Positions 17,959-53,673 of a stretch of DNA of 64,000 bases are shown one piece after another (the stretch's first letter is position 1; every line of letters begins with the position of its first letter). The stretch is from an uncultured Gammaproteobacteria bacterium. GTDB taxonomy: Bacteria; Patescibacteriota; Patescibacteriia; CAIXNZ01. A program made the position numbers and the translations under genes. The DNA lies in the NCBI GenBank assembly GCA_964590345.1, contig CAZPVP010000003.1, positions 3,634 to 67,633 on the forward strand. Direction: 5' to 3'. The notes beneath the pieces are model-generated. The model did not search any database. It was not told where the DNA came from and saw only the letters and a program-made list of their open reading frames with translations.

Positions 17959-20955
17959 ATGACAAATAATTCGCTTATACTTAATTTTGAACAAAAAAAG
18001 GCAATTACCTTTAGTAAAGGCCCTCTTTTAATTGTGGCAGGGGCTGGTACAGGAAAGACGATGGTAATTACGCAGAGAATTCAGCATTTAATTTTAGATA
18101 AAAATGTTAATACCGATAGGATTTTGGCTCTAACTTTTACTGAAAAAGCAGCAGAAGAAATGGAAGAACGCGTTGATAAACTTTTGCCTTATGGTTATGT
18201 TGATTTATGGATTTCTACTTTTCATTCATTTTGCCAGAAAATTTTAGAGCAGCAGGCAATTGATATTGGTTTGCCTAATGGTTTTAAACTGCTGAATGAA
18301 ACTGCTCAATGGCTTTTAGTGCGCCAAAATTTAGATAAATTTGATTTGGATTATTACAAGCCTTTGGGCAACCCGACTAAATTTATTCAGGCCTTAATCC
18401 GCCATTTTTCCAGAGCTAAAGACGAAGAGGTTTATCCGGAACATTATCTTGAATATGCTCAGACACTTAAGCAAAATGCTGATTCATCTATGAGTGACGA
18501 ACTTTTAGATCAGGAAAGTTTACGTATTAAAGAAATTGCCGAAGCCTATCATGTTTATCAGCAATTGCTTTTAGATAATAATTATTTGGATTTTGGCGAT
18601 TTGATTAATTATACTTTAAAACTTTTTAGAACCAGGCCAAATATTTTAAAAAAATACCAAGAGCAGTTTGAATATATTTTGCTAGATGAGTTTCAGGATA
18701 CAAATTTTGCCCAGTATGATTTAGTTAAGCTTTTAGCTGGTCAAAAGAAAAATTTAACGGTAGTAGGGGATGATGATCAGTCAATTTATAAATTCAGAGG
18801 TGCTTCTGTTTCTAATATATTGCAGTTTAAAAAAGATTTTCCCAAAAGCCAGGAAATTGTTTTAACTATTAATTATCGATCCAATCAAAATATTTTAGAT
18901 TTAGCTTATAATTTTATTCAGTTAAATAATCCTAATCGTTTGGAATATCAATTAAGCAAGCAAAGCAAAATTGATAAAAAAGGTAAATTGAATAAGTTTG
19001 ATAAAAAATTAAAAGCCAATGAGAAAGGCGATGGCCTGATTGAACATATTCATGAAAAGAGCCTTGATTGGGAAGTTGAAGCAATAATTAAAAAGATAGC
19101 GGAATTAAAGAAAAAAGATAAAGAAGCGTCTTGGAGTGATTTTGCTATTTTGGTTAGAGCAAATGATTCTGCTAATCCTTTTATAAATTATTTACGAAGG
19201 ACAGATATTCCTTATCAATTTTTAGCTTTGCGCGGTTTATATAATAAGCCGGTTATCTTGGATATATTTGCTTATTTTAAGCTTTTGGATAATTATCATG
19301 AATCTCCGGCTGTTTTTAGAATTTTATGTTCGCCAGTAGTAGATATTTCTCAAGAAGATATTGTTAAAATTTGTCATCAGGCAAATTGGAAAACCAAATC
19401 AATTTATGAAGTTTTGCAGGAAATTTCAACTTTAAAGGGGATAGCTAAAAAAACTGTTTCTGAAATTAATTTTCTGCTTGGCTTGATTACAAAACACAGT
19501 CAAATGGTTAAGGAAAAAAGTGTGGGAGAAGTTTTAAAAGCTTTTTTAGAAGATTCAGAATATTTGGAAAAATTAGTTAAGCAGGATGAATATGAAAGCA
19601 ATCAGGCCATTTCTTACCTTAATCAGTTTTATAAAAAAATTAAAAAATTTGAAGAATCAGTGGCTGACCCGAATTTAAAAGCTTTTATGCAGGAAATTGA
19701 TTTAGAGCTGGAAGCAGGGGAGCAGGGGCCATTAAGCTTTGATATAGAAGCAGGTCCTGAAATGGTTAAAATCATGACAGTTCATGCAGCCAAAGGGTTA
19801 GAATTTAAATATGTTTTTATACCTAATTTAGTTGATCGCCGTTTTCCCACTAATGAAAGAAAAGAGCCAATTGAATTGCCTGACGAATTAATTAAGGAAA
19901 TTTTGCCTGAGGGGGATATTCATTTGCAAGAGGAGCGCAGGCTTTTTTATGTGGCTATGACTCGGGCTAAGCATGGTTTATTCTTGACCTCAGCAGATGA
20001 TTATGGCGGAGCCAGAAAAAAGAAAATTTCAAGATTTTTAGAGGAATTAGCTGAAACAAATAAAAATTTTAATTTAAGCAAAAAATCATTAAGTTCTGCT
20101 CAATCTCTGGCAGTGTTAAAGGTTGCAGAAAGTGATAAGGGTGTCAAAAATGAAAAGCCTGAATATGAATTACCCAGTCGTTTTTCTTATTCGCAATTGG
20201 CTGCTTTTTCAAAGTGTCCTTATCAGTATAAATTAGGTTTTATTTTACGAGTGCCGGTTTTTGGCAAAGCTGTTTTTTCTTATGGCAAAAGCATGCATAA
20301 AACCCTGGAAGAATTTTTTAAAATGGTTTTAGCAAAAGAGGCCAAGAAACAGGCTGATTTATTTGAAGGCAAAGAAAAAGATAAAAAGAAAATAAAGGAT
20401 TTGGTGAAATTTGATGAATTGATAGAACTTTTAAAAACTCATTGGCTTGATGAATGGTATAAAGATAAAGAACAGCGGGAAAAGTACTATAAACAAGCTC
20501 AAAAAAGTTTAAAAGTTTTTTATGAGCAAGTTAAAGATCAAGTTTGTAAAACCGAAGCAGTTGAAAAGTATTTTAATTTAAAAATAAATGATTTTACAAT
20601 TAAGGGCGTTATAGATAGAATTGACCGTTTGGAAAATAATGCGATTAATATTATTGATTATAAAACTGGTACGCCCAAAGAACAGGATAAATTAAGCTTG
20701 GAAGACAAAATGCAGCTTTTGATTTATCAAATTGCGGCCGAAGAGATTTTGCAGGAGAAAGTCAATAATTTGATTTTTTATTATCTTGATGATAATTCAA
20801 CAGTTGAATTTTTGGGCACTGAAAAAGAAAAAGAAAAAGTTAAGCAAGACATAATTAAAGAAATTGAGGCGATTAATAATTCTAATTTTGCAGCCACGCC
20901 TGGCTGGGTCTGTAAATTTTGCGATTTTAAAAATATTTGCGAATATAAGGTTTAA
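17959..20955 (+). CDS. UvrD/PcrA/AddA-like superfamily 1 helicase fused to a C-terminal Cas4/RecB-like PD-(D/E)XK nuclease carrying a 4-Cys Fe-S cluster
   Basis: Walker A VAGAGTGKT. Nuclease motifs GVIDRIDRL..IIDYKTG. Cys pattern CPYQ...CKFCDFKNIC (1+3 Cys as in Cas4/AddB). Confidence 0.85.
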   Translation: MTNNSLILNFEQKKAITFSKGPLLIVAGAGTGKTMVITQRIQHLILDKNVNTDRILALTFTEKAAEEMEERVDKLLPYGYVDLWISTFHSFCQKILEQQAIDIGLPNGFKLLNETAQWLLVRQNLDKFDLDYYKPLGNPTKFIQALIRHFSRAKDEEVYPEHYLEYAQTLKQNADSSMSDELLDQESLRIKEIAEAYHVYQQLLLDNNYLDFGDLINYTLKLFRTRPNILKKYQEQFEYILLDEFQDTNFAQYDLVKLLAGQKKNLTVVGDDDQSIYKFRGASVSNILQFKKDFPKSQEIVLTINYRSNQNILDLAYNFIQLNNPNRLEYQLSKQSKIDKKGKLNKFDKKLKANEKGDGLIEHIHEKSLDWEVEAIIKKIAELKKKDKEASWSDFAILVRANDSANPFINYLRRTDIPYQFLALRGLYNKPVILDIFAYFKLLDNYHESPAVFRILCSPVVDISQEDIVKICHQANWKTKSIYEVLQEISTLKGIAKKTVSEINFLLGLITKHSQMVKEKSVGEVLKAFLEDSEYLEKLVKQDEYESNQAISYLNQFYKKIKKFEESVADPNLKAFMQEIDLELEAGEQGPLSFDIEAGPEMVKIMTVHAAKGLEFKYVFIPNLVDRRFPTNERKEPIELPDELIKEILPEGDIHLQEERRLFYVAMTRAKHGLFLTSADDYGGARKKKISRFLEELAETNKNFNLSKKSLSSAQSLAVLKVAESDKGVKNEKPEYELPSRFSYSQLAAFSKCPYQYKLGFILRVPVFGKAVFSYGKSMHKTLEEFFKMVLAKEAKKQADLFEGKEKDKKKIKDLVKFDELIELLKTHWLDEWYKDKEQREKYYKQAQKSLKVFYEQVKDQVCKTEAVEKYFNLKINDFTIKGVIDRIDRLENNAINIIDYKTGTPKEQDKLSLEDKMQLLIYQIAAEEILQEKVNNLIFYYLDDNSTVEFLGTEKEKEKVKQDIIKEIEAINNSNFAATPGWVCKFCDFKNICEYKV

Positions 20956-21081: not shown

Positions 21082-23094
21082 ATGTTCAAACAAAAGAAAA
21101 ATAATAAAATTTGGATAGTTTTTTGTATTTTTTTAACTTTGTTTTTTGTTGGCAGATCAGCAAGCCCGACTTTAGCCAGTTGGGGATATATGGATAATAT
21201 TACCCAAGGCAGCGAAAATATAACAGATAGTGCCAATAATCATGATGATGCTGTTTTAAGAATTTATAATGATAAGCCCAGATTAGCTTGGATTGATGAA
21301 ACAACAGGTGAAGTTTATTATACGCAATGGTCAGGTTCATCTTGGACTTATGCTGATGGCAGCACCAGTGGTTATGAAAATATTTCTAATTTAGGAGCGG
21401 GTAAAAGCTATAATATGAGAATGGAAATTGATTCTAACGGTTATCCAAGAATAGTTTTTGATGAGGCTGTTTCAAATGATTACATTTATTATATCCAATG
21501 GTCAGGTAGCTCATGGACACATGCTGATGGCTCTACTGCTGGTAAAGAAATAATAGTCAGTGATAAAGATGCTAGTAATGCTTTAGCTTTAGCTTTGGAT
21601 GATAATGACAAGCCGCATGTAGCCTGGAGTTATGAAGTAGTTGATTTTGAAATTTATTATACAAAGTGGAATGGTTCTGGTTGGACATATGCTGATAGTA
21701 CAACAAATGGCTATGAGCAGGTTTCTGATTTGCCGGATACAATTGAACAATATCCTACTTTAAAAATATATAACAATAATCCTCGAATAATCAGTGGTGC
21801 TTTTGACAATGGTTATCAAATACAATATATTCAGTGGTCGGGTAGTTCGTGGACACATGCCGATGGCTCTACTGCTGGCTGGGAAAATATAGCTGATCCT
21901 AATTCTGAATCAAACAGTCCCCAGATGGAATTGGCTTCAAATGGCTATCCAAGGGTTATTTGGGTTGACGCGATAAGCCCTAGTGATTTTGATATATATT
22001 ATTCACAATGGTCAGGATCTGCCTGGACATATGCCGATGGCACTACTACTGGTTATGAAAATGTTCATGATAATGATAAGCTTTCATATTTATCACCGCG
22101 TCAGACCGCAATGGAAGGAAGCAATATTGCACTTGATCAAAATGACAGGCCAATGATTGTTTGGCGTAACGATGCTGATGGCAATTTTGATATATATTTT
22201 ACAAAATGGTCGGGTAGTGCTTGGACAAAAGCTGATGGTACAGCTGGTTATGATAATCTTTCTGATTCAACGACCTTTAATTATATTCCCAGAATTGAGT
22301 TGGATTCAGTTGATAATCCCGTAGTTTCTTGGAGCCACAATGCATCTGGCAATAGCGATATATATTATACGCAATGGACACCGGGGGCTGGCGAGACGGT
22401 TTGTGGATCGGGGATAACAGATTGTTGGACAACAGCAGAAGAGACTGTTTCAGGTGTTGATAATGTTTCAAATAATTCAGGAGATTCAATAATTGATGAC
22501 ATGGCTTTAAATTCAGTCAATGCAGCTTATTTTGTCTGGCATGATGATACTGATGGTAATTACGATATATATTTTAGCAGGTGGCTTTATGATCAAGAAG
22601 ATCAGGTAAATATTACTGCCGATGTAGAACCATCATTAACTTTCAATATCTCTTCAGCTATTTGTAATTTGGGAACATTTTCAGCCTCAACAATCAAAAC
22701 TTGCAATTATTATACTGAAGTGGATACTAATGCCAGCGGTGGTTATATCGCTTATATTAAAGAAGATGGTAATTTACGAAATGCGACAAATAGCATTAAT
22801 GACGTGACTGATAATGAAGTAACGGCAGGCAGTGAGGAATATGGAGTTGCAACCAGTGATTCTGATTATGCTTCATTAGATATAAATCAGCAGGTAACAG
22901 ATTGCGCCAGTTTAGATGGAAGTTCAACAGCCTCTGCATCAACTTTAACAACCAGTGATCAGTTATTTGCTATAGCTAATCAGCCTGTTAGCAGCGATAC
23001 TGTTCATCTCTGTTTCTCTGCAGCTATTTCAGGTGATACACCTGCCGGGGCTTATTCTAATACTGTAACAATAACTGTAATTGGCAATTTTTAG
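21082..23094 (+). CDS. secreted protein with eight ~57-aa WSGSxWT repeats (putative beta-propeller) plus a C-terminal chaperone-usher-pilin-like (SCPU/CsuA/B-like) domain
   Basis: Signal peptide. Repeats YYTQWSGSSWTYADGSTSGYENIS x8, one carrying a Cys-loop insertion. C-terminus VEPSLTFNISSAICNLGTF..TCNYYTEV..GYIAYIKEDGNLRN...TPAGAYSNTVTITVIGNF. Confidence 0.6.
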   Translation: MFKQKKNNKIWIVFCIFLTLFFVGRSASPTLASWGYMDNITQGSENITDSANNHDDAVLRIYNDKPRLAWIDETTGEVYYTQWSGSSWTYADGSTSGYENISNLGAGKSYNMRMEIDSNGYPRIVFDEAVSNDYIYYIQWSGSSWTHADGSTAGKEIIVSDKDASNALALALDDNDKPHVAWSYEVVDFEIYYTKWNGSGWTYADSTTNGYEQVSDLPDTIEQYPTLKIYNNNPRIISGAFDNGYQIQYIQWSGSSWTHADGSTAGWENIADPNSESNSPQMELASNGYPRVIWVDAISPSDFDIYYSQWSGSAWTYADGTTTGYENVHDNDKLSYLSPRQTAMEGSNIALDQNDRPMIVWRNDADGNFDIYFTKWSGSAWTKADGTAGYDNLSDSTTFNYIPRIELDSVDNPVVSWSHNASGNSDIYYTQWTPGAGETVCGSGITDCWTTAEETVSGVDNVSNNSGDSIIDDMALNSVNAAYFVWHDDTDGNYDIYFSRWLYDQEDQVNITADVEPSLTFNISSAICNLGTFSASTIKTCNYYTEVDTNASGGYIAYIKEDGNLRNATNSINDVTDNEVTAGSEEYGVATSDSDYASLDINQQVTDCASLDGSSTASASTLTTSDQLFAIANQPVSSDTVHLCFSAAISGDTPAGAYSNTVTITVIGNF

Positions 23095-23114: not shown

Positions 23115-24434
23115 TTGATTATGCTTGATTTTTTTTTAAAGCCGAGAGGATCTTTTTATATAATTTTTGTTTTTTTAATATTTTTTTTATTGCCGCAAAA
23201 GTCAGTTGCTTCAAGCTTGCATACTTTAAGCGATAAAATGAGCCGCCATGCGCCGTCTACGCCGGCTGACCATGAAATAAAGTTTACTACGCCAAGCGGG
23301 ATTAATAATTCAGGGGAATATCTAAGGATTATTTTTGACAGCGGCTTTGATTTGTCATCAATACAATATACTGATATTGATTTATACCATGGACCGATAA
23401 CTGGTTTTGAAAAGAGTGAAGTTTTGAGACCGACAGCCGTGGAGACTGCCTGGGGAGTTAATGTCTCCGGTAATCAAATTGATTTTACTCATCCGACAAA
23501 TAATGCAAATGGCGATATTTTAGCTAATGATAAAGTAGTAATTAGGATTGGTTTGAATGCTCAAAATGGACAATATCAAATAATAAATCCAAGTACAACC
23601 GGTTCAAAAATTATAACTTTAAGCGGTAATTACGGCGATTCTGGTAAATTAGCCGTGGCCATTTTTGAAGATCAGCTCGTTGTCGGTGGCCAAACAGAAA
23701 ATTCACCCCCCAATCCTGTTACTTTATATTCGCCGTCAAATATTACCGCTAATTCTATGGTTTTGAGCTGGAGCAAAAATATTGATATTGATTTTGATCG
23801 CTACGAACTTTATATGGCTGAAAATACAGGAGTAACTAATGTCAATGGCTCTTTGGTTTGCCTTAATTCGCTTAATTCAGAAACGTCTTGTATTGTAAGT
23901 TCTTTGACTGGTGATAGGGAGTATTTTTTTGTGCTTTATGTTTATGATACAGAAGGGCTTTATTCTGCCTCAAATGAAGTGATGGCAAAAACGTTAAGTG
24001 TCGGAGGCGGTGCGCCACCACAGCCAGCAATGCCAACGCTTGATGAGCGTCTTTGTCCCATATTTTTGTCAAACACTTTATTGTCAGGAACCAAACCATT
24101 AGGAACAATTATTTTTATTAATGGTTCTGCTGAAGGCATAGATTATCCTACTTTAACAAGTTGGAATTCATTAGTTGATTTGAATTTAGGAAATAATTTG
24201 TTTCTAATTTGGGCGCGTGATAATTATGGCCAAAATAGCGAAGTTTTAAATGCTACGGTTACCCGTTGTGAAGTCGGCGATACAGACTGCAACGGTATTG
24301 TAGATGATTTTGATTTATCTGGATTGGCTTATCATTGGAATACCGCTTGGTGTTACGCTGATTTTAATGAAGATAGTATTGTAGATGATTTTGATTTATC
24401 TGGATTGGCCGCACATTGGGATAAAATATATTAA
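23115..24434 (+). CDS. secreted protein with the shared N-terminal domain of this locus (F.SDFDLS..TDID pattern), an FN3-like domain and a C-terminal dockerin-like duplicated Ca-binding repeat
   Basis: Signal peptide. FN3-like PVTLYSPSNITANSMVLSWS..YELYMAEN. Dockerin-like DTDCNGIVDDFDLSGLAYHW / DFNEDSIVDDFDLSGLAAHW. Confidence 0.55.
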   Translation: MIMLDFFLKPRGSFYIIFVFLIFFLLPQKSVASSLHTLSDKMSRHAPSTPADHEIKFTTPSGINNSGEYLRIIFDSGFDLSSIQYTDIDLYHGPITGFEKSEVLRPTAVETAWGVNVSGNQIDFTHPTNNANGDILANDKVVIRIGLNAQNGQYQIINPSTTGSKIITLSGNYGDSGKLAVAIFEDQLVVGGQTENSPPNPVTLYSPSNITANSMVLSWSKNIDIDFDRYELYMAENTGVTNVNGSLVCLNSLNSETSCIVSSLTGDREYFFVLYVYDTEGLYSASNEVMAKTLSVGGGAPPQPAMPTLDERLCPIFLSNTLLSGTKPLGTIIFINGSAEGIDYPTLTSWNSLVDLNLGNNLFLIWARDNYGQNSEVLNATVTRCEVGDTDCNGIVDDFDLSGLAYHWNTAWCYADFNEDSIVDDFDLSGLAAHWDKIY

Positions 24435-24456
24435 GAAATATAAATATAATTTTAAT

Positions 24457-26682
24457 ATGAAATTTTTAATAAAAGTATTTTTAATTATTTTTTCAGGAAG
24501 TTTGATTTCGCCAATTCTACCAATTCAAGCTGCGGGTGACGCAGTTATGACGTTGAGTTCAATAAAGACTGATTATAATGTTGGAGAGACAGTTTATGTT
24601 GATATTGAGGTTGAGCCAAATGGCGCTTATTTAAATACAGTTAGATCCATTATGGATTTTACTGGCGATGATGTTTTGGTAATAGAGGATTTTAATATTG
24701 GCGATGCATTTCCTTATTTAAGTCCTGATTTTGAATTAAATAATGAAACAAATGATATTAATGTCGGCGGTTTTATTTTGGCTGATTCAGTAAATACAGA
24801 TGCATTATTCGGTACTTTAATTTTTAAAGCTAATTCTGTTGGTTCATCAACAATTAATTTTTTAGATGGCTCGCATTTAATTGATGTTAATCAAGTAGAT
24901 CAAATTAATTTAGCCGGCTGTCAGGGGATTACGATTAATGTAATTGGCGAGCCATTACCTGCACCAACTCCTTCACCAGTTAATCAGCCCCCGGTTTTTC
25001 AGCAGGTTGGTAATAAAAATATAAATTTGGGGGAATCAGTAAATTTTGGCGTTTCTGCCAGTGACCCCGAAGGCGATCCAGTTAATTTAACATGGGAAAT
25101 ACCTGCTGGCGCAAGCTTTAGTAATGTTTTAAATAATGCTGCAGAAGTTGGCGGTGATTTTAGCTGGACACCGGATAAAGAGGGAGTTTATAGCGCGACT
25201 TTTACAGCAGTTGATCCCGAGGATAATATTGCAAATTTAACAGTCAGTATCAGCGTTTCTGTAGAACCTTTACCGCCAAATCATGCCCCGGTTTTTGATC
25301 CTGTTTCAGAAAAGACAGTTAATGCTGGCGAAATTTTAACTTTTAATGTTACAGCTACTGATCCCGATGGCGATAATGTGAGTTTGAAATTAGCTGAATT
25401 AGAAAATGCTGCTTTTAATATAATAACCAGCGGACCGACTTCAACCGGGCGTTTTTCCTGGCAGCCGAAAACTTATGGCATTTATTATGCCTTGTTTGAA
25501 GCAACCGATGATCATCCAGAAAATCCTTTGACTAAAAATTTGCCGGTTAGGATTACTGTTTTTGGCGGTGAATGCCCGCCTTGCGGAGGAGGTGATTGTC
25601 CGATCTGCCAGTGTGAAAAGGAAACCGAAGAATTGCCTGTAATTACAGAGAAAGAACCACCAGTTATAAGTTCACCCAGCCATTCTAATCAAGATAAATG
25701 GTATGCGAAAAATAAGCCGCAATTTAGCTGGCAGGTTGATGATCCTGGCTTGGGTTACCATTTCAATTTGGATGAAAAGCCTTTTACCGATCCGGATTAT
25801 GCCTATTTTTACAGCCAGGAAAACTTTTTTTCATTTACTGAGGTAGCAGACGGCTTTTGGTATTTTCATTTGAAAGTTAAATATGCTGATGGCTGGGGGC
25901 CGGTTTCTCATTATCAGGTGAAAATTGATACTACACCGCCCGAATTTTTTAGGCCGAGTATTGAGCAAAATCAGTTATATTTTTCCAGTTTGGACAAGCA
26001 TTCGGGCGTGGCTTATTATGAAATGAAAATAGGGGAAAATCCTTGGCAAAAAGTCATTAGTCCTTTAAATTTAGATGAATTACCTGAATATAGCTCCCAA
26101 TTAATTTTACGTGCTGTTGATAAAGCCGGTAATGCTATAGAAAGTTATATTGATTTGGATAAAAAAGAAGTTGTGGTAGAAAAAGAGCAAAAAAAATATA
26201 TTGTGGAAGAATTTGCTGAGATAATTGAGCCGCCGGTTATTGAAAACGTTAGCTTTGAACGGCTTCGCGATAAATTAATAGTAGAAGATTATTTGATTGT
26301 TTCTGGACGGGCCATACCAAATTCGTTGGTAACAGTTCATTTATCTACAAAACCCGAAACAGTTTTTTATGCCCAAGCCGATAAAAATGGTAATTGGCAG
26401 GCTAAGCTTAAAAAAGAATTAGCAGCTAAAAAATATAATTTGTATGCTACAGCGACAATTGATGATCTGATTTCTTTGCCGTCGGAAAAAGTTTATTTTT
26501 CATTAGTGGAAAAATTTATGCCAAAAGAAGAAGTTAAATTACCCTTTTGGCTTATTGGTTTAATTGCAATTTTAATTATTTTGGTGATTATTTTGTTGAT
26601 GAAAAATATTTCATTGAGAAAGAAATTGGGCAAATTTCAGTCTATGCTGAAAAAATCAAAAGATAAATTATGGAAAAAATAA
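24457..26682 (+). CDS. membrane-anchored surface protein with an N-terminal cohesin-like domain, tandem cadherin/He_PIG-like Ig repeats, a Cys-rich linker, an Ig-like domain and a C-terminal TM anchor
   Basis: Signal peptide MKFLIKVFLIIFSGSLISPILPIQA (start moved to 24457). Cohesin-like AAGDAVMTLSSIKTDYNVGETVYVDIEV...LFGTLIFKANSVGSSTINF. Ig repeats NQPPVFQQVGNKNINLGE..ASDPEGDPVNLTW and NHAPVFDPVSEKTVNAGE..ATDPDGDNVSL. CPPCGGGDCPICQC. TM anchor FWLIGLIAILIILVIILLM. Confidence 0.55.
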   Translation: MKFLIKVFLIIFSGSLISPILPIQAAGDAVMTLSSIKTDYNVGETVYVDIEVEPNGAYLNTVRSIMDFTGDDVLVIEDFNIGDAFPYLSPDFELNNETNDINVGGFILADSVNTDALFGTLIFKANSVGSSTINFLDGSHLIDVNQVDQINLAGCQGITINVIGEPLPAPTPSPVNQPPVFQQVGNKNINLGESVNFGVSASDPEGDPVNLTWEIPAGASFSNVLNNAAEVGGDFSWTPDKEGVYSATFTAVDPEDNIANLTVSISVSVEPLPPNHAPVFDPVSEKTVNAGEILTFNVTATDPDGDNVSLKLAELENAAFNIITSGPTSTGRFSWQPKTYGIYYALFEATDDHPENPLTKNLPVRITVFGGECPPCGGGDCPICQCEKETEELPVITEKEPPVISSPSHSNQDKWYAKNKPQFSWQVDDPGLGYHFNLDEKPFTDPDYAYFYSQENFFSFTEVADGFWYFHLKVKYADGWGPVSHYQVKIDTTPPEFFRPSIEQNQLYFSSLDKHSGVAYYEMKIGENPWQKVISPLNLDELPEYSSQLILRAVDKAGNAIESYIDLDKKEVVVEKEQKKYIVEEFAEIIEPPVIENVSFERLRDKLIVEDYLIVSGRAIPNSLVTVHLSTKPETVFYAQADKNGNWQAKLKKELAAKKYNLYATATIDDLISLPSEKVYFSLVEKFMPKEEVKLPFWLIGLIAILIILVIILLMKNISLRKKLGKFQSMLKKSKDKLWKK

Positions 26683-27371
26683 TTAAAATTATTTTATTGG
26701 CAGCTATTTTAGCAGTCGCCAAAGAGGCTTTTGCCAGCATGACTAGTGATAATTATAATGTTTGGATTGATAATTTGAGCGCTGGTGGCGGGCGAGTAGA
26801 ATCAACTACTTATAAAATAGATTCCAATTTTAGCAGCCAGACAGGTGATGTGGGGCAAAGTACTAATTTTCAGGAAAAAATTGGTTTTTCCCCTATTGAA
26901 GATGAGCCGACGGTTGGTTTTAATATTGCTTCAGTTACTTTGAATTTTGGAGAGCTTTCCTCAAATTCAACAGCTTATTCAAGTCATACTTTTGCTGCTT
27001 ATACAAATTCCAATGCCGGTTATAGCATTAAGGTTTATGGGCAACCGTTAAATACGGATGATTATACCTTAACAGCAATTGGTAGCACTCCCCAAAGTTC
27101 TGAGGTGGGCACTGAACAATTTGGCATGAATTTAGTTGCTAATACCTTGCCTTTGGTTGGTCAAGATCCTTCTGGCGGTGTTGGTCAAGCAGCAAGCAAT
27201 TATGATTCAGAAAACCAATTTGCTTACAATGAGGGCGATGTGGTTGCCGAAGCCGACAGTTTTTCTTATCAGACAGATTATACTGCTTCAATCATTGTTA
27301 ATATATCTGGCGAGACTCCGTCCGGAGTTTATGATACGATATTAACTTATGAATTTATTCCGGTTTTTTGA
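26670..27371 (+). CDS. small secreted pilin-like subunit with a divergent SCPU/CsuA/B-like C-terminal module
   Basis: Signal peptide. C-terminus LNFGEL...YSIKVYG...TPSGVYDTILTYEFIPVF (an alternating hydrophobic terminal strand like its paralogues). Confidence 0.45.
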   Translation: MEKIIKIILLAAILAVAKEAFASMTSDNYNVWIDNLSAGGGRVESTTYKIDSNFSSQTGDVGQSTNFQEKIGFSPIEDEPTVGFNIASVTLNFGELSSNSTAYSSHTFAAYTNSNAGYSIKVYGQPLNTDDYTLTAIGSTPQSSEVGTEQFGMNLVANTLPLVGQDPSGGVGQAASNYDSENQFAYNEGDVVAEADSFSYQTDYTASIIVNISGETPSGVYDTILTYEFIPVF

Positions 27372-27574: not shown

Positions 27575-28615
27575 ATGCCTATGAAAAAAAGATTAAAGCT
27601 TTTTTCAACTGCGGGGATAATTTTATTGGTTGTTTCTTTCGCATTAGTCGCATTAAATTCAGCATTGGCAACAGGTATGAGCAATGTTTCTGTTACGCAG
27701 ACAACTTATGCTGCAAGCACTGCAGTAGCAACTACCACCATTGTTTTTGATCCAGAAACCGAGGTCAATTCCAATGATGGTATTTTAATTACTTTTGAAT
27801 CTGATTATGACATTTCCAGTGTGGTTGATGATGATGTCGCAGTCTCACAGACTAATAGTGGTGTAGATATTACAAAAGGAACAGCAGCTGTGAGTGGTCA
27901 GGATTTGCAAATTCCGATTACTACAGAAGGTGATACTCCCGCGGGACAAATTACTGTGACTATTTCAAATAGTCATATTACTAACCCGACTTCCAGTGGC
28001 ACTTATACTGTCACTATCAAAACTTATGATTTAGGTGATGACAATGCTTTTGGCGGTGCTGATGCTAATGCTGATACTTTGGAAGATACTGGTGCAGCAG
28101 CTGTAATTATTGGCACAAATCAAGTGACAATTTCAGGTACAGTTGATCCGAGCTTAAGTTTGTCTTTGTCAGGTACAAGTTGTGCTTTGGGGACATTAAG
28201 TTCTGCAAACATTCAAACTTGCCAGTATGATTCAACAGTTAGTACAAATGCCAGTTCAGGTTATACAGCCTATATTAAAGAAGATGGCAATTTAAGGAAT
28301 GCAAGTAATGATATCGATGATGTGGCTGATAGTACTACTGATGCTGGTTCAGAAGAATACGGCCTAAGTACAAGTGAATCTGATACAGTTGATATAACAG
28401 CGACCAATTCTTCTGCGACTTGTACTACAAATGATGACGGTACAACACCTACAAATGCCCAGGCATTAACTACTAGTGACCAATCATTTGCAACACAATC
28501 TGCGCCTGTGGATTCTGATGTGGTAACTTTATGCCATTCAGCTTCAATTTCCGGCACAACACCGGCTGGCGCTTATTCTCATACAGTGACAGTTACTGTT
28601 GTTGGTAACTTTTAA
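27575..28615 (+). CDS. secreted two-domain protein: shared N-terminal domain plus SCPU/CsuA/B-like C-terminal module
   Basis: Signal peptide. C-terminus VDPSLSLSLSGTSCALGTL..TCQYDSTVSTNASSGYTAYIKEDGNLRN...TPAGAYSHTVTVTVVGNF. Confidence 0.6.
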   Translation: MPMKKRLKLFSTAGIILLVVSFALVALNSALATGMSNVSVTQTTYAASTAVATTTIVFDPETEVNSNDGILITFESDYDISSVVDDDVAVSQTNSGVDITKGTAAVSGQDLQIPITTEGDTPAGQITVTISNSHITNPTSSGTYTVTIKTYDLGDDNAFGGADANADTLEDTGAAAVIIGTNQVTISGTVDPSLSLSLSGTSCALGTLSSANIQTCQYDSTVSTNASSGYTAYIKEDGNLRNASNDIDDVADSTTDAGSEEYGLSTSESDTVDITATNSSATCTTNDDGTTPTNAQALTTSDQSFATQSAPVDSDVVTLCHSASISGTTPAGAYSHTVTVTVVGNF

Positions 28616-28657: not shown

Positions 28658-29641
28658 ATGAAAACAAAAAAAATATTTGTACTCTTTACAGCTTTACTGC
28701 TAGGCGCATTATTATTGCCTTTAGCTGGTAATGCTGTAACAGTATCGCCTCCAATTATTGAATTAGACGCAGCAAAAGGCGATGTGATTAATCAGTCCTT
28801 AAAAGTGAGGAATGAATCCAATACTTCTGTCACTTATTACCTTACTGCCGAGAGATTTGTGGCTGGTGGCGAAGCTGGAGCGCCTGAATTTGTTGGAGAA
28901 GATATTGGTTTGTCAACCTGGATAAAGTTTCCTTATGAGAATATAAGCATCCCGGCCGGTGAGACAATAGAAGTCCCTTTTAGCATTGTAGTGCCGAATT
29001 ATGCTGCTCCAGGTGGTCATTATGCAGCAATATTTTTAAGCACAACGCCACCAGAAGCTCAAACCGGTGGTTCACAGGTGGCAATTGCCAGCAGAATCGG
29101 AACTTTAGTTTTAGTAAGAATTCAAGGGGAAATAAAGGAAAGCGCTAATTTGGCTGAGTTTAATACAGCGGCTGATAATTACGCTTCATTGCCAGTTGAT
29201 TTTAATGTCAGAGTTGAAAATACAGGCAATGTTCATTTAAAGCCAAGAGGTACGGTTTTAATCAAAAATATGTTTGGTTCAGTAGCAGGTTCTGTAGCAG
29301 TTAATGAAATAGGCGGCAATGTTTTGCCGGAACAAATTAGAAAATTTGAAGCCTCTTGGGTTAAAAATCCAAATGAAGTCGGTGCAACTTCATTTTGGGG
29401 GAAATACAGACAGCAGAAAGAAAATTATGCTTTTGGTCGCTATAAAGCTGAATTAACTTTAAATTATGGCACAGCAGGTAAAATTTTGACAGCAACTACT
29501 AGTTTTTGGGTAATTCCTTGGCATATTATATTTGTAAATTTAGTAATACTTGTAATTATTGTTATTATCCTATATTACTTGATTAAGCGATATAATGCTT
29601 GGTTGATTGAAAAATATGCAAAAGGCAAGAAAAAGAAATAA
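28658..29641 (+). CDS. PapD-like/DUF916-like beta-sandwich protein with a C-terminal TM anchor, a candidate membrane-tethered pilus chaperone
   Basis: Signal peptide. N-terminal strand pattern AVTVSPPIIELDAAKGDVINQSLKVRNESNTSVTYYL resembles the periplasmic-chaperone N-domain pattern. C-terminal TM IIFVNLVILVIIVIILYYLIKR plus a basic tail. Confidence 0.4.
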   Translation: MKTKKIFVLFTALLLGALLLPLAGNAVTVSPPIIELDAAKGDVINQSLKVRNESNTSVTYYLTAERFVAGGEAGAPEFVGEDIGLSTWIKFPYENISIPAGETIEVPFSIVVPNYAAPGGHYAAIFLSTTPPEAQTGGSQVAIASRIGTLVLVRIQGEIKESANLAEFNTAADNYASLPVDFNVRVENTGNVHLKPRGTVLIKNMFGSVAGSVAVNEIGGNVLPEQIRKFEASWVKNPNEVGATSFWGKYRQQKENYAFGRYKAELTLNYGTAGKILTATTSFWVIPWHIIFVNLVILVIIVIILYYLIKRYNAWLIEKYAKGKKKK

Positions 29642-29687: not shown

Positions 29688-29725
29688 TAAAAAAGGGGCT
29701 TTTTACTTGATAAAAAGCCCCTTTG
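29688..29725 (+). terminator. hairpin AAAAGGGGCTTTTTacttgatAAAAAGCCCCTTT (possible attenuating terminator inside the operon)
   Basis: Read directly. It overlaps the annotated 5' end of the next track ORF, so that gene probably starts at 29737. Confidence 0.45.
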
Positions 29726-29736
29726 GCGTATTAAAG

Positions 29737-30138
29737 ATGACAAAGTCAATAATTAAAGGGAAAGAAAGATTATTAATAGTAATAATTTTAATTATTGCTC
29801 TTAATTTTATTTTATTATCTATTGGTTATGGTCAAACAAACGTCAATATACGGGCTTATGTTCCTGAGACAGAAGAAAATAAGAGATTTTCCAATAATCA
29901 AATTAAACAAGAAAAACCGACTACTAAGGAAAATAAATACCAGTATTTTTTTGAAAAATTTTGGCTGACCCAAACTGATAAAGAAACTAATGCAATAGAG
30001 CAAGAAGAAGTGCAGACAATCCACGACAAGATAGTTAGCCATTTTTTTATGTGGTTAATTTTGTTTGTTATTGCCATAATCAGCTTTTTTGTCTTGCGAA
30101 TAATTGATCATTATATAATAAGCATTTTTCGGTCATGA
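29737..30138 (+). CDS. small membrane protein with two TM helices, translationally coupled (ATGA overlap) to the next pilin-like gene
   Basis: Hydrophobic segments LLIVIILIIALNFILL and FFMWLILFVIAIISFFVL. Confidence 0.45.
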   Translation: MTKSIIKGKERLLIVIILIIALNFILLSIGYGQTNVNIRAYVPETEENKRFSNNQIKQEKPTTKENKYQYFFEKFWLTQTDKETNAIEQEEVQTIHDKIVSHFFMWLILFVIAIISFFVLRIIDHYIISIFRS

Positions 30139-31169
30139 AAAAAGCGTTATCATATTTAATTATTATTTTATTGCTGGCAATTTTAGTTTATTTTTTGATT
30201 CATACTGTCAGAGCCGGCTTGGTAAGTAATTTTAGTGATGAATTAAGCAGTCAGGTTATTGCTTCAGCAGCTAATCACACAATTTTATTTACAACAGCTT
30301 CTAATTTTGGGCCAGATGAAACGATAGAATTGTTCTTTGAATCAGATTTTGATTTGAGCTTAATTGATTATACTGATATTGATTTTAAAGATGATGATGT
30401 TGATTTAAATTTAGGTGACAGCCCAGGAACTGGTAGTGGCAGTAATATTGGAGTTAGTGTTAGTGGACAGACAATAATTTTTACTCAGAATGATGCTGAT
30501 ACTGTTTTGGCTGGTTCAGAGATTACGATTGCTATTGGCTTAAATACTGATTATCAAACTCAAGGCGATCAGCAAATTTATAATCCAAGTATTGCTGATA
30601 CTTATAAAATAAGTTTGTCAGGCTCTTTTGGGGACATGGGCACAATTTCAGTGGTTATTTTGGAAAGCGATTCAGTTTCTTTACAGGCAGAAGTTAATCC
30701 AGAATTAAGCTTTGCCATTAGAAATAGCGATGATACTGATTATGCTAATAATTGTAACTTGGGTACAATTACTGATTTTGCTGTTAGCCATTGTTCATAT
30801 CGTTTAGCGGCTGAAACCAATGCTTATAATGGTTTTCAGGTTTATATTCAGGCTGATGGCAATTTCCGTAATCAATCTGGTTTTATATCTAATATTAGCG
30901 AAAACAGCCAGGTAGAGCAAGGGGAAGAAGGTTATGGTCTTGCTGTTGCTGCTGGTGATAATATTATTGAAGAAGGGGATTTTAATGATGATGATACGCC
31001 GATTCCAACAGAAGATACACTTTTAATTAAGTCAAATTCAGTGTATAATTATATAGAAGGGGATTTGTCCACTTCTTCATTAATAACCCACAAAGCTTGT
31101 GTTTCATCAACAACAAAAGCAGGGGTTTATAGTCAGCAAATAACTTATTCAATTTTGGCTAATTATTAA
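30135..31169 (+). CDS. secreted two-domain protein: shared N-terminal domain plus a divergent SCPU/CsuA/B-like C-terminal module
   Basis: N-terminus FFESDFDLSLIDYTDID. C-terminus NPELSFAIRN..NCNLGTI..HCSYRLAAETNAYNGFQVYIQADGNFRN...TKAGVYSQQITYSILANY. Confidence 0.55.
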   Translation: MKKALSYLIIILLLAILVYFLIHTVRAGLVSNFSDELSSQVIASAANHTILFTTASNFGPDETIELFFESDFDLSLIDYTDIDFKDDDVDLNLGDSPGTGSGSNIGVSVSGQTIIFTQNDADTVLAGSEITIAIGLNTDYQTQGDQQIYNPSIADTYKISLSGSFGDMGTISVVILESDSVSLQAEVNPELSFAIRNSDDTDYANNCNLGTITDFAVSHCSYRLAAETNAYNGFQVYIQADGNFRNQSGFISNISENSQVEQGEEGYGLAVAAGDNIIEEGDFNDDDTPIPTEDTLLIKSNSVYNYIEGDLSTSSLITHKACVSSTTKAGVYSQQITYSILANY

Positions 31170-31196: not shown

Positions 31197-32285
31197 ATGA
31201 AAAAACAAAAAATAATATTTGTTTTTACATCAATAATAGTGTTAACTTTGATGTTGGCAATATTATTGAATCCCAGCATTTCTAAAGCTGGAAACTGGCT
31301 TTTTGATCCTGAACCGGCTCCTGCCAGTTCAAGTATTACTTTGTGTATTGGCGCTAAAGCCCCTAATGACGGTTGGAGCGCTGATGATTATCTTGATATG
31401 GTTTTTCCTTCAGAATTTGATTTAACAGGCCTTACGATTAGTGATACCAGCGGCAGTTCAGAAATAGAACTTTATTCAAATGCAAATGACTGTACTGGGA
31501 CAGCCAGAATTGCTGAAGCGACAGCTACAGCTGATAATGATCGTGACTATATGGAAATTTCAGGCCAACAGCATAGAATTATTTTGGAAGATGCAATAGC
31601 AGCAGATACGCCTTTTAGCGTAAAATATGTAGCTAAATCCGGCGATTCAATTGTTACGCCAAGCGCTGGTAAATATTTGCTTAAAGCTGATTGGGGGCCA
31701 AGTAGCACTTTTATTCCTGTTAAAAATGATGCTGATTTTATTTATGTAGGCGATTCAATGCCTGATCAGGTAGAGATATCAGCCAGCGTGGATCCCAGCT
31801 TAACTTTAAGCGTATCTTCAAGTTCATGTAATTTGGGAACATTTTCTGCAACTAATATCCAGACGTGCAATTATTATACTGAAGTAAGCACTAATGCCAG
31901 TTCAGGCTATACAGCTTATATAAAAGACGACGGGGATTTGTCAAGCGGAAGTGATACTATAGCTGATGTGACTGGCGGATCAGTTTCTTACGGCACGGCT
32001 GCTTATGGTATTTCTACGACAGAAGATGAAAGCGTTGATATTTTACAGATCCAGGATGCTGATTCTGATCTAGATTATGACGGAGATGATTGTAGCACTT
32101 TAGATGATGGTACTACATCAGCAAATGCTTCGGCTGTAACAACCAGTGATCAGTCATTTGCCACTTCAACTGGAGCTATTAGTGCTGATAGTATTTATTT
32201 GTGCCATGCCGCAGCTATATCAGGCTCAACACCTGCCGGCGCTTATTCAAACACAATAACCATTACGGCAGTCGGTAATTTTTAA
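31197..32285 (+). CDS. secreted two-domain protein: shared N-terminal domain plus SCPU/CsuA/B-like C-terminal module
   Basis: C-terminus VDPSLTLSVSSSSCNLGTF..TCNYYTEVSTNASSGYTAYIKDDGDL...TPAGAYSNTITITAVGNF. Confidence 0.6.
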   Translation: MKKQKIIFVFTSIIVLTLMLAILLNPSISKAGNWLFDPEPAPASSSITLCIGAKAPNDGWSADDYLDMVFPSEFDLTGLTISDTSGSSEIELYSNANDCTGTARIAEATATADNDRDYMEISGQQHRIILEDAIAADTPFSVKYVAKSGDSIVTPSAGKYLLKADWGPSSTFIPVKNDADFIYVGDSMPDQVEISASVDPSLTLSVSSSSCNLGTFSATNIQTCNYYTEVSTNASSGYTAYIKDDGDLSSGSDTIADVTGGSVSYGTAAYGISTTEDESVDILQIQDADSDLDYDGDDCSTLDDGTTSANASAVTTSDQSFATSTGAISADSIYLCHAAAISGSTPAGAYSNTITITAVGNF

Positions 32286-32377: not shown

Positions 32378-34423
32378 TTGGTAATTTTAATATTCAATTT
32401 AATGAAGATATATTCTTTTAAAAAATTTTTTTATAAAAAAATAATTTTTAGTATTGTTGTCCTTTTTTTTATTTTTGCTTTTGCTGGTACAGTTTATGCT
32501 TTTTGGGGGCATATGGATACAAAAGATACTGGCTATGAGATTTTACACAATAATAGTGTTGATGAGCTGAAAATTAAGGTTGAAATTTATGATGACAAGC
32601 CCAAGTTGGTTTGGCAGACTGATCTGGGAGCGCAGTATTGGGGCGATATTTATTATACTCAATGGTCAGGTACTGAGTGGACAAAGGCTGACGGCACGTC
32701 CGGCTATGATAATTTGACGGTTTCATCCGGAGGAAATCATGACGAGCCATATATTGAGCTTGATTCAGCTGGTAATCCGAAAATTATATTTAGAGATAAA
32801 AACTTGGGGAAAATTATTTATACACAATGGTCGCCAAATGCTTGCGGCGGAAGCGGCTGCTGGACAAAGGCGGACGGCACAACTTCATCGCCAAGCTATG
32901 ATACTATTGGCGTTTCTGATGCTGTTTTGGATTTTGCTCTGGATAGCAATGATAACCCCCATATTATTTGGCGTTATAATGACGGAGGAGGAATGGATGT
33001 CTATTATACCAAATGGAATGGTTCCAACTGGACTTATGCTGACGGCACAACTCTTGGTGAAGAAAAGATTGATTTGAATGGCGGAGCGATTATTTGCCAT
33101 ATTGAAATTTATAATGACAAGCCGATAATTATTACTGATGACAGTATTACTGGCAATTCTGAAATTCAATATATACAATGGTCAGGTTCAGCTTGGACAA
33201 ATGCTGATGGGATAACGGTTGGTTGGGAGAATATATCTAATACTGCCACTAATTCAGCCAGATCAAGATTTAAAATTGACAGCTTGGGCAATATAAAAGT
33301 GGTTTGGACAGAGGAAACCGCTAGTGATAATGAAATTTATTACACGCAATGGACAGTGAGTCATAATGACTGGACCAAAGCAGACGGGATAACCTCAGGC
33401 TGGGAAAATGTTTCTGATAATTCCGGTGATTCAAGTATTTACGGTATAAATACAATTATGCTTGATAATAATGATAATCCGGGATTGGTTTGGTTGGATG
33501 ACACAAGCGGCAATAGCAATCTCTATTATTCGCAATACGTTTCAGGTACAGGCTGGACAAAAGCGGATGGTTCAACATTAGGCTGTGATAATGTTTCAGA
33601 TAGTTCGGGGGATAAGAAACTTGTTAGGATGGCTTTTGATTCTACTAATAATCCTAATATTGTTTGGGGTGATGATTTTAGCGGTAATTATGAGGTATAT
33701 TTTAGTCAATATGTAGATTCGGTCGGCTGGACAGAAGCTGACAAAACAACAGTAGGTAAGGAAAATATATCAAATACTTCAGGTACATCTTCGGTTCAGA
33801 GTATATTATTAAATTCAATTAATGAGCCCCATGTCTTTTGGTATGATGATACGGATGGCGATGATGATGTTTATTTTTCACGCTGGACAGAAACCAATAT
33901 TGGACAGGTAAATATAACCGCTGATGTTGAGCCTTCATTGAGTTTGACTTTACCAGGTGGTCAGACAGCTAATTTAGGATATTTTTCCTCCCAAAGTTTG
34001 CAAACGGCTGTTTATCAAAGTGTTATTAGCACAAACGGTTCTTTGGGCTATACTGCTTATATTAAAGATGACGGCGATTTGAGAAATGAAACCAATTCCG
34101 TTAGCGATACCAGCGGTACAATCAGTTATGGCGATGAATCTTATGGTGTTGTGACAACAGAAGGAGATACAGTTGATATAACTAAAATTATTGATACAAA
34201 TAACGATGAACAATATAATTCAACAGACTGCACTTTATTGGATGGTGAGGCGACCTCACTTAGCGCAACAGCGCTGACCAGTGGTTTGCAGTCATTTGCC
34301 AAATCAAATGGTCCTGTCAGCGATGACAATGTCTATTTATGTTTTATAGTGGCAATCTCTGGCTCAACCCCTGCCGGTGCTTATTCAAGCACTGCAACAA
34401 TTACTGTGGTTGGTAATTTTTAA
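32378..34423 (+). CDS. secreted protein with eight WSGSxWT-type repeats plus an SCPU/CsuA/B-like C-terminal module (first Cys pair lost), paralogue of the 21082 gene
   Basis: Repeats IYYTQWSGTEWTKADGTSGYDN..., one with a CGGSGCWT insertion. C-terminus VEPSLSLTLPGG..GYTAYIKDDGDLRN...TPAGAYSSTATITVVGNF. Confidence 0.6.
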   Translation: MVILIFNLMKIYSFKKFFYKKIIFSIVVLFFIFAFAGTVYAFWGHMDTKDTGYEILHNNSVDELKIKVEIYDDKPKLVWQTDLGAQYWGDIYYTQWSGTEWTKADGTSGYDNLTVSSGGNHDEPYIELDSAGNPKIIFRDKNLGKIIYTQWSPNACGGSGCWTKADGTTSSPSYDTIGVSDAVLDFALDSNDNPHIIWRYNDGGGMDVYYTKWNGSNWTYADGTTLGEEKIDLNGGAIICHIEIYNDKPIIITDDSITGNSEIQYIQWSGSAWTNADGITVGWENISNTATNSARSRFKIDSLGNIKVVWTEETASDNEIYYTQWTVSHNDWTKADGITSGWENVSDNSGDSSIYGINTIMLDNNDNPGLVWLDDTSGNSNLYYSQYVSGTGWTKADGSTLGCDNVSDSSGDKKLVRMAFDSTNNPNIVWGDDFSGNYEVYFSQYVDSVGWTEADKTTVGKENISNTSGTSSVQSILLNSINEPHVFWYDDTDGDDDVYFSRWTETNIGQVNITADVEPSLSLTLPGGQTANLGYFSSQSLQTAVYQSVISTNGSLGYTAYIKDDGDLRNETNSVSDTSGTISYGDESYGVVTTEGDTVDITKIIDTNNDEQYNSTDCTLLDGEATSLSATALTSGLQSFAKSNGPVSDDNVYLCFIVAISGSTPAGAYSSTATITVVGNF

Positions 34424-53424: not shown

Positions 53425-53427
53425 TCC

Positions 53428-53673
53428 ATGCTTCGAAATTTAATTGATATTTTTTACTCAAATTTTCGTCTTAGCAATCGTTACCCTGACATTACTTCTG
53501 ATGATGAGCAAATAATTATTGAATGCGGAGATACTGATCCTAATAAAATTATTGAGCATTTTGATTTAGGTGTCGCAAAAATTTTAATATTACCCTGTCC
53601 CAATATTGAATCTAAAAATTTTAGAGATAATCATTATAAAGAAAAAATTAAAAAAATAATAAAAAAGAGGTAG
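53428..53673 (+). CDS. hypothetical small protein (81 aa)
   Basis: ORF followed by terminator hairpin AAAAAAGAGGtagaaatacCCTCTTTTTT (53661-53689). Confidence 0.35.
   Translation: MLRNLIDIFYSNFRLSNRYPDITSDDEQIIIECGDTDPNKIIEHFDLGVAKILILPCPNIESKNFRDNHYKEKIKKIIKKR

Follow-up and report, generated by a model that had tools for sequence, protein, structure and literature searches.

In the window analysed here, a stretch of 64,000 nucleotides (64 kb) from contig CAZPVP010000003.1 of an uncultured bacterium (assembly GCA_964590345.1; deposited as Gammaproteobacteria, GTDB lineage Patescibacteriota), a gene for a dockerin-bearing protein is directly followed by a gene for a cohesin-bearing, membrane-anchored stalk protein. 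We found that these two genes are part of a Pam pilus operon, i.e. the operon of a donor-strand-exchange pilus of Patescibacteria, and not a free-standing minimal pair. Judged from its sequence, the product of the dockerin gene is a Pam pilin derivative that has kept a pilin's N-terminal domain and donor linker, while an FN3-X-dockerin array replaces the C-terminal acceptor domain. We propose that this protein terminates the pilus and that binding between its dockerin and the neighbouring cohesin anchors it to a membrane stalk, which would make the pair a two-protein analogue of the Pam protein PamR; we give this proposal about an even chance of being correct. Both kinds of modules are known as such, whereas the recruitment of a cohesin-dockerin joint into a donor-strand-exchange pilus system would be new.

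Pam pili of bacteria of the candidate phyla radiation (CPR) were described in a 2026 preprint (bioRxiv 10.64898/2026.03.03.709456). According to this work, a Pam pilin is composed of an N-terminal β-sandwich domain (NTD), a linker strand and a truncated-Ig C-terminal domain (CTD). The linker strand is donated into the CTD of the neighbouring subunit, and the NTD adds subunit-subunit contacts in the filament. PamT consists of a CTD only and was put forward as the tip, the PapD/FimC-like chaperones PamC and PamD are anchored in the membrane, and PamR of Ca. Mycosynbacter amalyticus, which comprises an N-terminal strand, two FnIII domains and a transmembrane helix, was proposed as terminator and anchor on the basis of AlphaFold models. 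Pam pili, which are easily detached according to the authors, are thought to serve host capture by episymbiotic CPR bacteria; for the pam operons, an ATP-synthase neighbourhood and a conserved adjoining 'tail fibre-like' gene were reported (bioRxiv 10.64898/2026.03.03.709456). Cohesins or dockerins are not mentioned in that paper, and full-text literature searches yielded no paper linking cohesin-dockerin to pili or Pam operons.

Scanning the window with the Pam models of the NCBIfam release of June 2026 (NF058579 and NF058581; cutoffs of 55 bits for CPR_Pam_pilin_C and 240 bits for CPR_pilus_PamT), we found a PamT-like tip pilin together with pilins carrying the Pam CTD around the dockerin and cohesin genes. 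The first 13 nt of the PamT-like gene, which starts at position 26670, coincide with the last 13 nt of the cohesin gene (26670-26682), and the gap between the dockerin and the cohesin gene is 22 nt, which suggests tight co-translation of all three genes. The original prediction, a minimal pair in which an FN3 protein docks onto a membrane-anchored scaffold, was right about the FN3 domain but missed this context as well as the pilin origin of the protein. The two genes are laid out as follows, with residues numbered as in the database proteins P0001 (dockerin protein) and P0059 (cohesin protein) and confidence of AlphaFold2 (AF2) models given as predicted local distance difference test (pLDDT).

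23115..24434, + strand: gene for the dockerin-bearing, pilin-derived protein; open reading frame (ORF) with signal peptide, NTD, presumed donor linker, FN3, X and dockerin
23217..23663, + strand: Pam-pilin-type NTD β-sandwich, P0001 residues 33-181, from BLASTP; pLDDT >90
23664..23711, + strand: linker and putative donor strand FEDQLVVGGQTENSPP, residues 182-197, aligning with the pilin linker strand
23718..23996, + strand: FN3 spacer, residues 200-292; Pfam fn3 at 206-289, E = 8.3e-8
24054..24266, + strand: X module, a β-domain, residues 312-382; AF2 β-strands at 318-382; abuts the dockerin without spacer
24273..24431, + strand: dockerin module, residues 385-437; two units of a 12-residue Ca loop plus helix, 27 residues apart
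24457..26682, + strand: gene for the cohesin-bearing, membrane-anchored stalk protein; ORF of 741 amino acids (aa), identical to P0059
24532..24951, + strand: cohesin module, residues 26-165; immediately follows the signal peptide
24982..25551, + strand: two Ig-like repeats of Big_9 / He_PIG / PKD type, residues 176-267 and 275-365
25573..25614, + strand: Cys-rich linker CPPCGGGDCPICQC, residues 373-386, read from the sequence
25615..26544, + strand: further stalk domains, residues 387-696
26545..26679, + strand: transmembrane helix FWLIGLIAILIILVIILLM (residues 697-715) and Lys/Arg-rich cytoplasmic tail (716-741), from hydropathy

The product of the dockerin gene comprises 439 aa when read from the TTG at 23115 and 437 aa in the database protein P0001, which starts at the ATG at 23121, matches the translation at 100% and has about 40 orthologs, in Patescibacteria. 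Its pilin origin became apparent from database relatives: residues ~6-190 of P0001 match the N-terminal halves of proteins of ~355-370 aa (BLASTP, E = 1e-27 to 1e-51), and eight of nine of these carry the Pam pilin C-domain of NCBIfam. In a MAFFT alignment with bona fide pilins, the linker is shared as well (GDSGKLAVAIfeDQlvVGG in the dockerin family versus GDtGxiAivIvdDDQfxvT in pilins), and the homology stops exactly at the start of the pilin CTD (DPSLSFSL…), from where the dockerin family goes on with PPxP and the FN3 domain. A CTD profile that does find the CTDs in all pilins of two other CPR loci, L009 and L010, detected none in the dockerin protein. The arrangement of NTD, linker and acceptor CTD that makes up a full Pam pilin is thus incomplete in the product of gene 23115, in which FN3, X and dockerin follow the linker. 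A direct BLASTP comparison with the pilin encoded at 27575 in the window gave only a marginal match of 24 residues (E = 0.049); the relationship is clear only via the database relatives. A Pfam scan of the dockerin protein found no catalytic domain. We also submitted the AF2 model of the full-length protein (pLDDT 86.5) to Foldseek, but tandem FnIII arrays dominated the matches, which were uninformative for the NTD or the dockerin.

The segments behind the linker differ in their constancy. Ortholog variants of ~332 aa (P0032-P0036) are devoid of the FN3 domain and keep NTD, linker, X and dockerin, indicating that FN3 behaves as an optional spacer. The X module directly precedes the dockerin: a cysteine at the end of X and a cysteine at loop position 4 covary among the orthologs (both present in 23, both absent in 16, mixed in none), and a second cysteine pair is near-invariant (38-39 of 40 orthologs). 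This pattern suggests that X and dockerin form a disulfide-stapled unit resembling an X-dockerin dyad. Mean pairwise identity is highest for the dockerin (70.7%), followed by the linker (67.6%), the NTD (59%), FN3 (51%) and X (50%), so that the linker is second only to the dockerin. In the AF2 monomer the linker is unstructured, with pLDDT <50 at residues 185-191, as expected of a strand that folds in the groove of a partner.

But does the dockerin protein belong to the pilus at all? The pair might bind while the dockerin protein acts outside the pilus, as a pilin-derived surface protein displayed on a membrane stalk whose linker is not a donor strand; such a protein might serve as adhesin, as spacer or as a platform near the membrane on which pilins are recruited or primed via NTD-NTD contacts. 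The identities of the modules and the conserved adjacency of the two genes are compatible with such a role, the donation of the linker strand is something we infer, and since NTDs contribute to the subunit contacts in Pam filaments, an NTD by itself might suffice for lateral association. On the other hand, the linker is more conserved than NTD, FN3 and X (50-59%), it aligns residue for residue with the donor strand of pilins, its disorder in the monomer model is hard to square with a mere spacer and the position of the dockerin gene is fixed inside the pilus operon. We thus consider a role outside the pilus unlikely.

The reading of the dockerin protein as a pilus terminator held by the cohesin protein presupposes that the two proteins bind each other, and conservation of the gene pair speaks to this point. 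A scan with an X-dockerin profile, taking one genome per species, yielded eight related loci, three from Parcubacteria, one from Uhrbacteria, three from Falkowbacteria and one from Buchananbacteria. In all eight genomes, the gene for the cohesin-Ig-transmembrane protein directly follows the dockerin gene, and wherever the contig continues, PamT, a pilin, a chaperone, a small transmembrane protein and another pilin come next. The same layout logic was found in a distant locus, L011, with diverged dockerin and cohesin sequences: here, a PamT-like/pilin gene, a pilin and two transmembrane chaperones are followed by P0055 (NTD-linker-FN3-X-dockerin), then by two small unrelated genes and finally by a 997-aa secreted protein in which Pfam significantly detects two cohesins (57.4 bits) and which also has Ig domains and an ECPPCPPC motif. 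The two inserted genes (7080-7617 of L011) encode a Lys-rich protein of 61 aa and a 119-aa member of the '23S rRNA intervening sequence protein' family; their presence indicates that the pair tolerates separation.

Six-frame translation of the window contained exactly one significant match to the dockerin profile and exactly one to the cohesin profile. A second, single loop-like string ECGDTDPNKIIEHFDL at 53425-53670 (+ strand; local E = 0.004) lies in a stop-to-stop stretch without evident gene and was judged to be a chance match. One match per profile in the window, a double loop-helix segment that is near-invariant in about 40 orthologs and a cohesin module that is kept in all 33 orthologs of the cohesin protein amount to more than chance. 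Dockerin and cohesin are furthermore the most conserved domains of their respective proteins (mean pairwise identity of the cohesin: 67.4%). From this and from the strict adjacency in eight genomes plus one distant locus, we infer that the dockerin of the window probably binds the cohesin of the window.

Alternatively, dockerin and cohesin might not bind each other but have other partners elsewhere in the genome, or the dockerin might be a Ca-dependent binder of glycans or host surfaces. Our view is limited to 64 kb of the genome, and the cohesin-like family is large, with 800 representatives that are mostly proteins of ~400 aa with other architectures. Glycan targeting was the subject of speculation for SEML1_0315, a dockerin-domain protein that is essential in the saccharibacterium Southlakia (PMC10633639). 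Other partners are difficult to reconcile with the strict adjacency, 1:1 stoichiometry and joint conservation of the pair in all eight genomes, with its recurrence at L011 despite diverged sequences and with the observation that every recovered protein with this dockerin subtype shares the pilin-NTD architecture. The latter point is limited by a homolog search with a 62-aa dockerin profile, which returned one fragment and missed known orthologs, so that the question of other architectures is answered only indirectly. Glycan binding would moreover run contrary to what is known of the family, as known dockerins bind cohesins and not glycans. In sum, separate partners or a glycan ligand appear rather improbable.

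Are the two modules what they seem to be? Both ORFs exist as originally predicted, and all peptide strings quoted for them are present in the translations. The product of gene 23115 does end in a duplicated segment (DTDCNGIVDDFDLSGLAYHW / DFNEDSIVDDFDLSGLAAHW) with 14 of 20 residues identical at a distance of 27 residues. Both Ca loops, DTDCNGIVDDFD and DFNEDSIVDDFD, carry Asp/Asn at positions 1, 3, 5, 9 and 12, and in the AF2 model helices at residues 396-404 and 423-431 follow directly after the loops, starting at loop positions 10-12 (pLDDT about 86-88); the module hence shows the tandem Ca-loop/helix arrangement of Dockerin_1 (PF00404). Whole-protein scans of both proteins against Pfam and NCBIfam gave no cohesin or dockerin match. 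With the Dockerin_1 profile, which had been named as a check, the window copy reached 16.1-16.2 bits (E = 0.013) and stayed below the gathering threshold of 22.9. The orthologs fared better: Dockerin_1 is the top Pfam match in 25 of the 26 sequences of one alignment (A2; best E = 1.4e-5), and two relatives exceed the cutoff, P0039 with 28.2 bits and P0179 with 26.9 bits. A phmmer search of PDB with the window dockerin segment returned six weak matches, all of them dockerins, and the best PDB matches of the dockerin profile were the dockerins of C. perfringens and C. cellulolyticum (2jnk/2ozn and 2vn6_B), with both repeats aligned (E = 0.005-0.007). The window dockerin is a divergent but genuine member of the Dockerin_1 family.

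One of these relatives deserves mention in its own right. P0039 (521 aa, on a 5.6-kb contig) carries the divergent dockerin of the family and, at its C-terminus, a second, canonical type-I dockerin, to which the 28.2 bits belong. The adjoining cohesin protein, P0090 (961 aa), contains CarboxypepD_reg domains and lacks a terminal transmembrane helix.

The cohesin required a different route. The strings of the cohesin pattern, GDAVMTLSS.KTDYNVGETVYVDIEV…LFGTLIFKANSVGSSTINF, are present in the translation of gene 24457, but in the profile check that had been named for this module as well, the window copy gave no match to Pfam Cohesin (PF00963; gathering threshold 24.1 bits), even at E<=10. Searches of PDB sequences with phmmer and with a 23-sequence profile gave nothing or noise (endonuclease IV, ribosomal uL4), so that sequence alone fails to reach the solved cohesins. 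The fold does reach them: residues 26-170 were modelled by AF2 with high confidence (pLDDT 94.5, predicted TM-score 0.88) as an all-β domain, and the top 50 Foldseek matches of this model in PDB are all cohesins (types I, II and III, C. perfringens and archaeal), with 6kgc_A as best match (E = 3.8e-9), TM-scores of 0.63-0.76 and 125 matches at E<=1e-3. The module thus shows the nine-stranded jelly-roll fold of ~140 residues that characterises cohesins, and the predicted cohesin at the start of the protein is borne out. Among the orthologs, 2 of 23 match Pfam Cohesin (best E = 2.9e-4), which is the only family matched more than once. HMMER scanning of 1.84 billion representatives with a profile of the module yielded 800 relatives, 141 of them at E<=1e-10; of 113 distant relatives, 87 match Pfam Cohesin (best E = 1e-11). 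The window profile also matches the cohesins of L011 (45 bits), which score 57.4 bits in Pfam, and the link of the window module to Pfam Cohesin is therefore transitive, via the L011 cohesins and the distant relatives. With the family assignment of both modules drawn from ortholog-level, transitive and fold evidence, the window cohesin is likewise a divergent but genuine member of its family.

A merely superficial resemblance, i.e. an acidic repeat of the general EF-hand kind and an ordinary Ig-like β-sandwich unrelated to cohesin-dockerin, could appeal to the sub-threshold window copies and to the noise from PDB sequences, but is very improbable and largely refuted by 50 top fold matches that are exclusively cohesins, by 87 of 113 relatives matching Pfam Cohesin, by Dockerin_1 as top match in 25 of 26 orthologs with two relatives over the cutoff and by PDB matches of the dockerin profile that are dockerins over both repeats. 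A cellulosome was ruled out, within the 64 kb covered: the window contains one cohesin and one dockerin with no enzymes to go with them, and neither glycoside hydrolases nor multi-cohesin scaffoldins were found in it.

The cohesin-like relatives (P0181-P0323) are mostly of ~250-450 aa, with the module nearly always right after the signal peptide and often accompanied by Big_13. This signal-peptide-proximal family may point to cohesin-based attachment at the surface of uncultivated bacteria in many further cases.

Behind its cohesin, the product of gene 24457 continues as a stalk whose predicted parts (cadherin/He_PIG-like Ig repeats, a Cys-rich linker and a C-terminal transmembrane anchor) were recovered from Pfam and the sequence. 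The two Ig repeats match Big_9 (E = 4.4e-11, two stretches), PKD_4 (E = 2.1e-7) and He_PIG (E = 3.8e-7). Of the 33 orthologs, 32 retain the CPPC…C motif of the Cys-rich linker, as does the cohesin protein of L011. Further towards the C-terminus, an OmpL47-type β-barrel-like domain (residues 503-560; NCBIfam barrel_OmpL47, E = 1.8e-8) and a Big_13 domain (residues 615-667; Pfam, E = 2.9e-8) were found. The transmembrane stretch reaches a Kyte-Doolittle value of 3.35 in its best 19-aa window and is followed by a tail with 11 Lys/Arg residues; a similar helix and tail are present in about 27 of the 33 orthologs.

How could these parts act together? Like the linker of a pilin, the linker of the dockerin protein would insert into the groove that the last-added pilin offers in its CTD. 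As the dockerin protein itself has no acceptor CTD, no further subunit could be added and elongation would stop at the cell-proximal end of the filament. The X-dockerin would bind, in a Ca-dependent manner, to the N-terminal cohesin at the distal end of the multi-Ig stalk protein of ~700 residues, and the C-terminal transmembrane helix of the stalk would fasten the base of the pilus to the membrane; the stalk could span the envelope. In evolutionary terms, the cohesin-dockerin joint might have been recruited as pilus anchor in one clade of Patescibacteria (Uhr-, Falkow- and Buchananbacteria-like), with a CTD-less pilin as terminating subunit, an idea that falls just short of what we would call probable.

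Several points weigh against a terminating and anchoring pair. The terminator role of PamR in the reference system is itself an AlphaFold-based proposal (bioRxiv 10.64898/2026.03.03.709456). The case for strand donation in the dockerin protein consists of the alignment with pilin linkers and the disorder in the monomer model. A distance of 27 residues between its repeats makes the dockerin unusually compact, and the window's own copies of both modules lie below the Pfam thresholds. Several longer orthologs of the cohesin protein (about 960-1170 aa) show no transmembrane helix in their last 80 residues, indicating that membrane anchoring in that form is not universal. Finally, no dockerin/cohesin pair was found within ±10 kb of the closely related pilins at the CPR loci L009 and L010; the pair is hence a lineage-specific variant and no general requirement of Pam pili.

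In its mechanism, the proposed joint is closest to the X-dockerin:cohesin pairs (type II/III) that anchor cellulosomes, such as the XDocII of CipA with the CohII of SdbA in C. thermocellum or the XDoc of CttA with the cohesin of ScaE in R. flavefaciens. As in these systems, a C-terminal dockerin with two Ca-loop/helix repeats follows directly after a β 'X' module, a single cohesin is located on a cell-anchored protein, the cohesin adopts a jelly-roll fold (TM-score of about 0.7 to types I, II and III) and the joint would keep an assembly outside the cell attached to it. Of all non-covalent bonds measured between proteins, those of X-dockerin:cohesin pairs rank among the strongest, which would suit a load-bearing pilus base. 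The window pair differs from the cellulosomal ones in several respects: its cargo is a pilin derivative instead of a scaffoldin or an enzyme, and its anchor is a C-terminal transmembrane helix instead of SLH domains or a sortase signal. Its dockerin stands out by a compact build (27-residue spacing) and by an apparent stapling through covarying cysteines, the host belongs to the CPR and both modules are too divergent for the Pfam thresholds. Connectors outside cellulose degradation are known from the GH84/GH33 toxin complexes of C. perfringens (2ozn, 2jh2, 2w1n, 2vo8) and from Archaeoglobus fulgidus (2xdh), and entries from both organisms are among our best sequence and fold matches; however, these non-cellulosomal pairs join enzymes or have no known role, and none of them is tied to a pilus operon or a pilin domain.

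In its role, the pair most resembles PamR or the PapH-type terminators. With PamR it shares the pam operon, a strand for the CTD of the last pilin without an acceptor groove of its own, FnIII-type domains and a membrane anchor. Inspection of ORFs as well as Pfam and NCBIfam matches revealed no protein in the cluster that combines strand, FnIII and transmembrane helix in a single chain, and the topology of PamR (strand, FnIII/Ig stalk, transmembrane helix) is reproduced only when dockerin and cohesin protein are taken together. What is one polypeptide in PamR would here be split over two non-covalently joined proteins, and the strand donor retains a complete pilin NTD; this comparison is based on the published layout of PamR and not on its sequence. 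PapH-type terminators of chaperone-usher pili and the basal pilins of sortase pili are dedicated last subunits that join normally and accept none, and a dedicated last subunit fixes the length of the pilus and marks its anchoring end. PapH still folds like a pilin, its groove is non-exchangeable and it stays at the outer-membrane usher, whereas in the dockerin protein the acceptor domain is deleted. Sortase basal pilins are covalently linked to peptidoglycan, whereas we propose a cohesin-dockerin joint to a membrane protein.

Ideas on the termination and tethering of Pam pili so far depend on a single AlphaFold-based proposal, PamR, to which the locus described here adds a concrete candidate for another anchoring solution, made up of one module of about 55 residues, one of about 140 and a delimited putative donor strand. 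So far, the cohesin-dockerin joint is known from cellulosomes, where it serves as connector, and from a small number of enzyme complexes. If our proposal is true, it would extend cohesin-dockerin biology to the anchoring of filaments and Pam pili to a further CPR clade, and would add a third way of anchoring pili beside retention at an usher and ligation by a sortase. It would also show how a cell without outer membrane or sortase-type pilus pathway keeps hold of a filament that spans the wall and bears mechanical load. On the practical side, it would provide annotation rules for 'hypothetical' protein families (about 40 and about 33) and for the much larger set of 800 representatives with the cohesin module.

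The other genes of the cluster are given below. Beyond the PamT-like gene at 26670, five genes match CPR_Pam_pilin_C over the full model length with 25.8-49.8 bits, all below the cutoff; several of the pilin and chaperone assignments in the cluster lie under curated thresholds.

21082..23094, + strand: candidate adhesin-pilin of 670 aa, directly upstream of the dockerin gene; CPR_Pam_pilin_C 43.3 bits, residues 525-670
26670..27371, + strand: PamT-like tip pilin, CTD only; CPR_Pam_pilin_C 135.9 bits; CPR_pilus_PamT 162 bits, below 240 and thus not equivalog
27575..28615, + strand: Pam-type pilin (NTD, linker and CTD, from alignment); CPR_Pam_pilin_C 49.8 bits, full model length, narrowly under 55
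28658..29641, + strand: putative PamC/D-like chaperone; signal peptide, C-terminal transmembrane helix, weak Ig-like matches
30135..31169, + strand: Pam CTD pilin; CPR_Pam_pilin_C 28.1 bits, sub-cutoff, full model length
31197..32285, + strand: Pam CTD pilin; CPR_Pam_pilin_C 42.5 bits, sub-cutoff, full model length
32378..34423, + strand: repeat-rich 'adhesin + CTD' protein of 681 aa; CPR_Pam_pilin_C 25.8 bits, sub-cutoff, full model length

The product of gene 28658 is a putative PamC/D-like chaperone, a role given to it by analogy with the system of the Pam paper; its Pfam matches are weak (fn3_5, E = 0.0011; WxLIP_PGBD, E = 0.018), and its position is kept in six of the eight related loci, with the other two contigs stopping short of it. 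Between this gene and the next pilin, a 143-aa protein (29707-30138) with a hydrophobic helix at both the N- and the C-terminus is weakly EssA-like (type VII secretion, 18 bits); it is found at this place in six of eight loci and has no named counterpart in the Pam paper. The proteins encoded at 21082-23094 and 32378-34423 share a propeller-like N-terminal region with recurring 'YYTQWSGSSWTxADGT' units, followed by the linker 'QVNITADVEPSL' and a Pam CTD, and look like adhesin-pilins. Paralogs of this 'adhesin + CTD' type occur upstream of the dockerin gene in 0-3 copies across the related loci.

The cluster ends with a protein of 1158 aa (34430-37906) that has a weak match, 36.8 bits against a cutoff of 60, to the N-terminal domain of the 'mosaic adhesive trimer' fibre proteins of Bdellovibrio. 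Beside this cluster we did not find the ATP-synthase neighbourhood known from other pam operons. Directly upstream of the cluster, the window encodes a helicase of PcrA/UvrD type (998 aa, 17959-20955) that carries a Cas4/AddB-like nuclease domain at its C-terminus, and the helicase gene holds the same position in six of the eight related loci.

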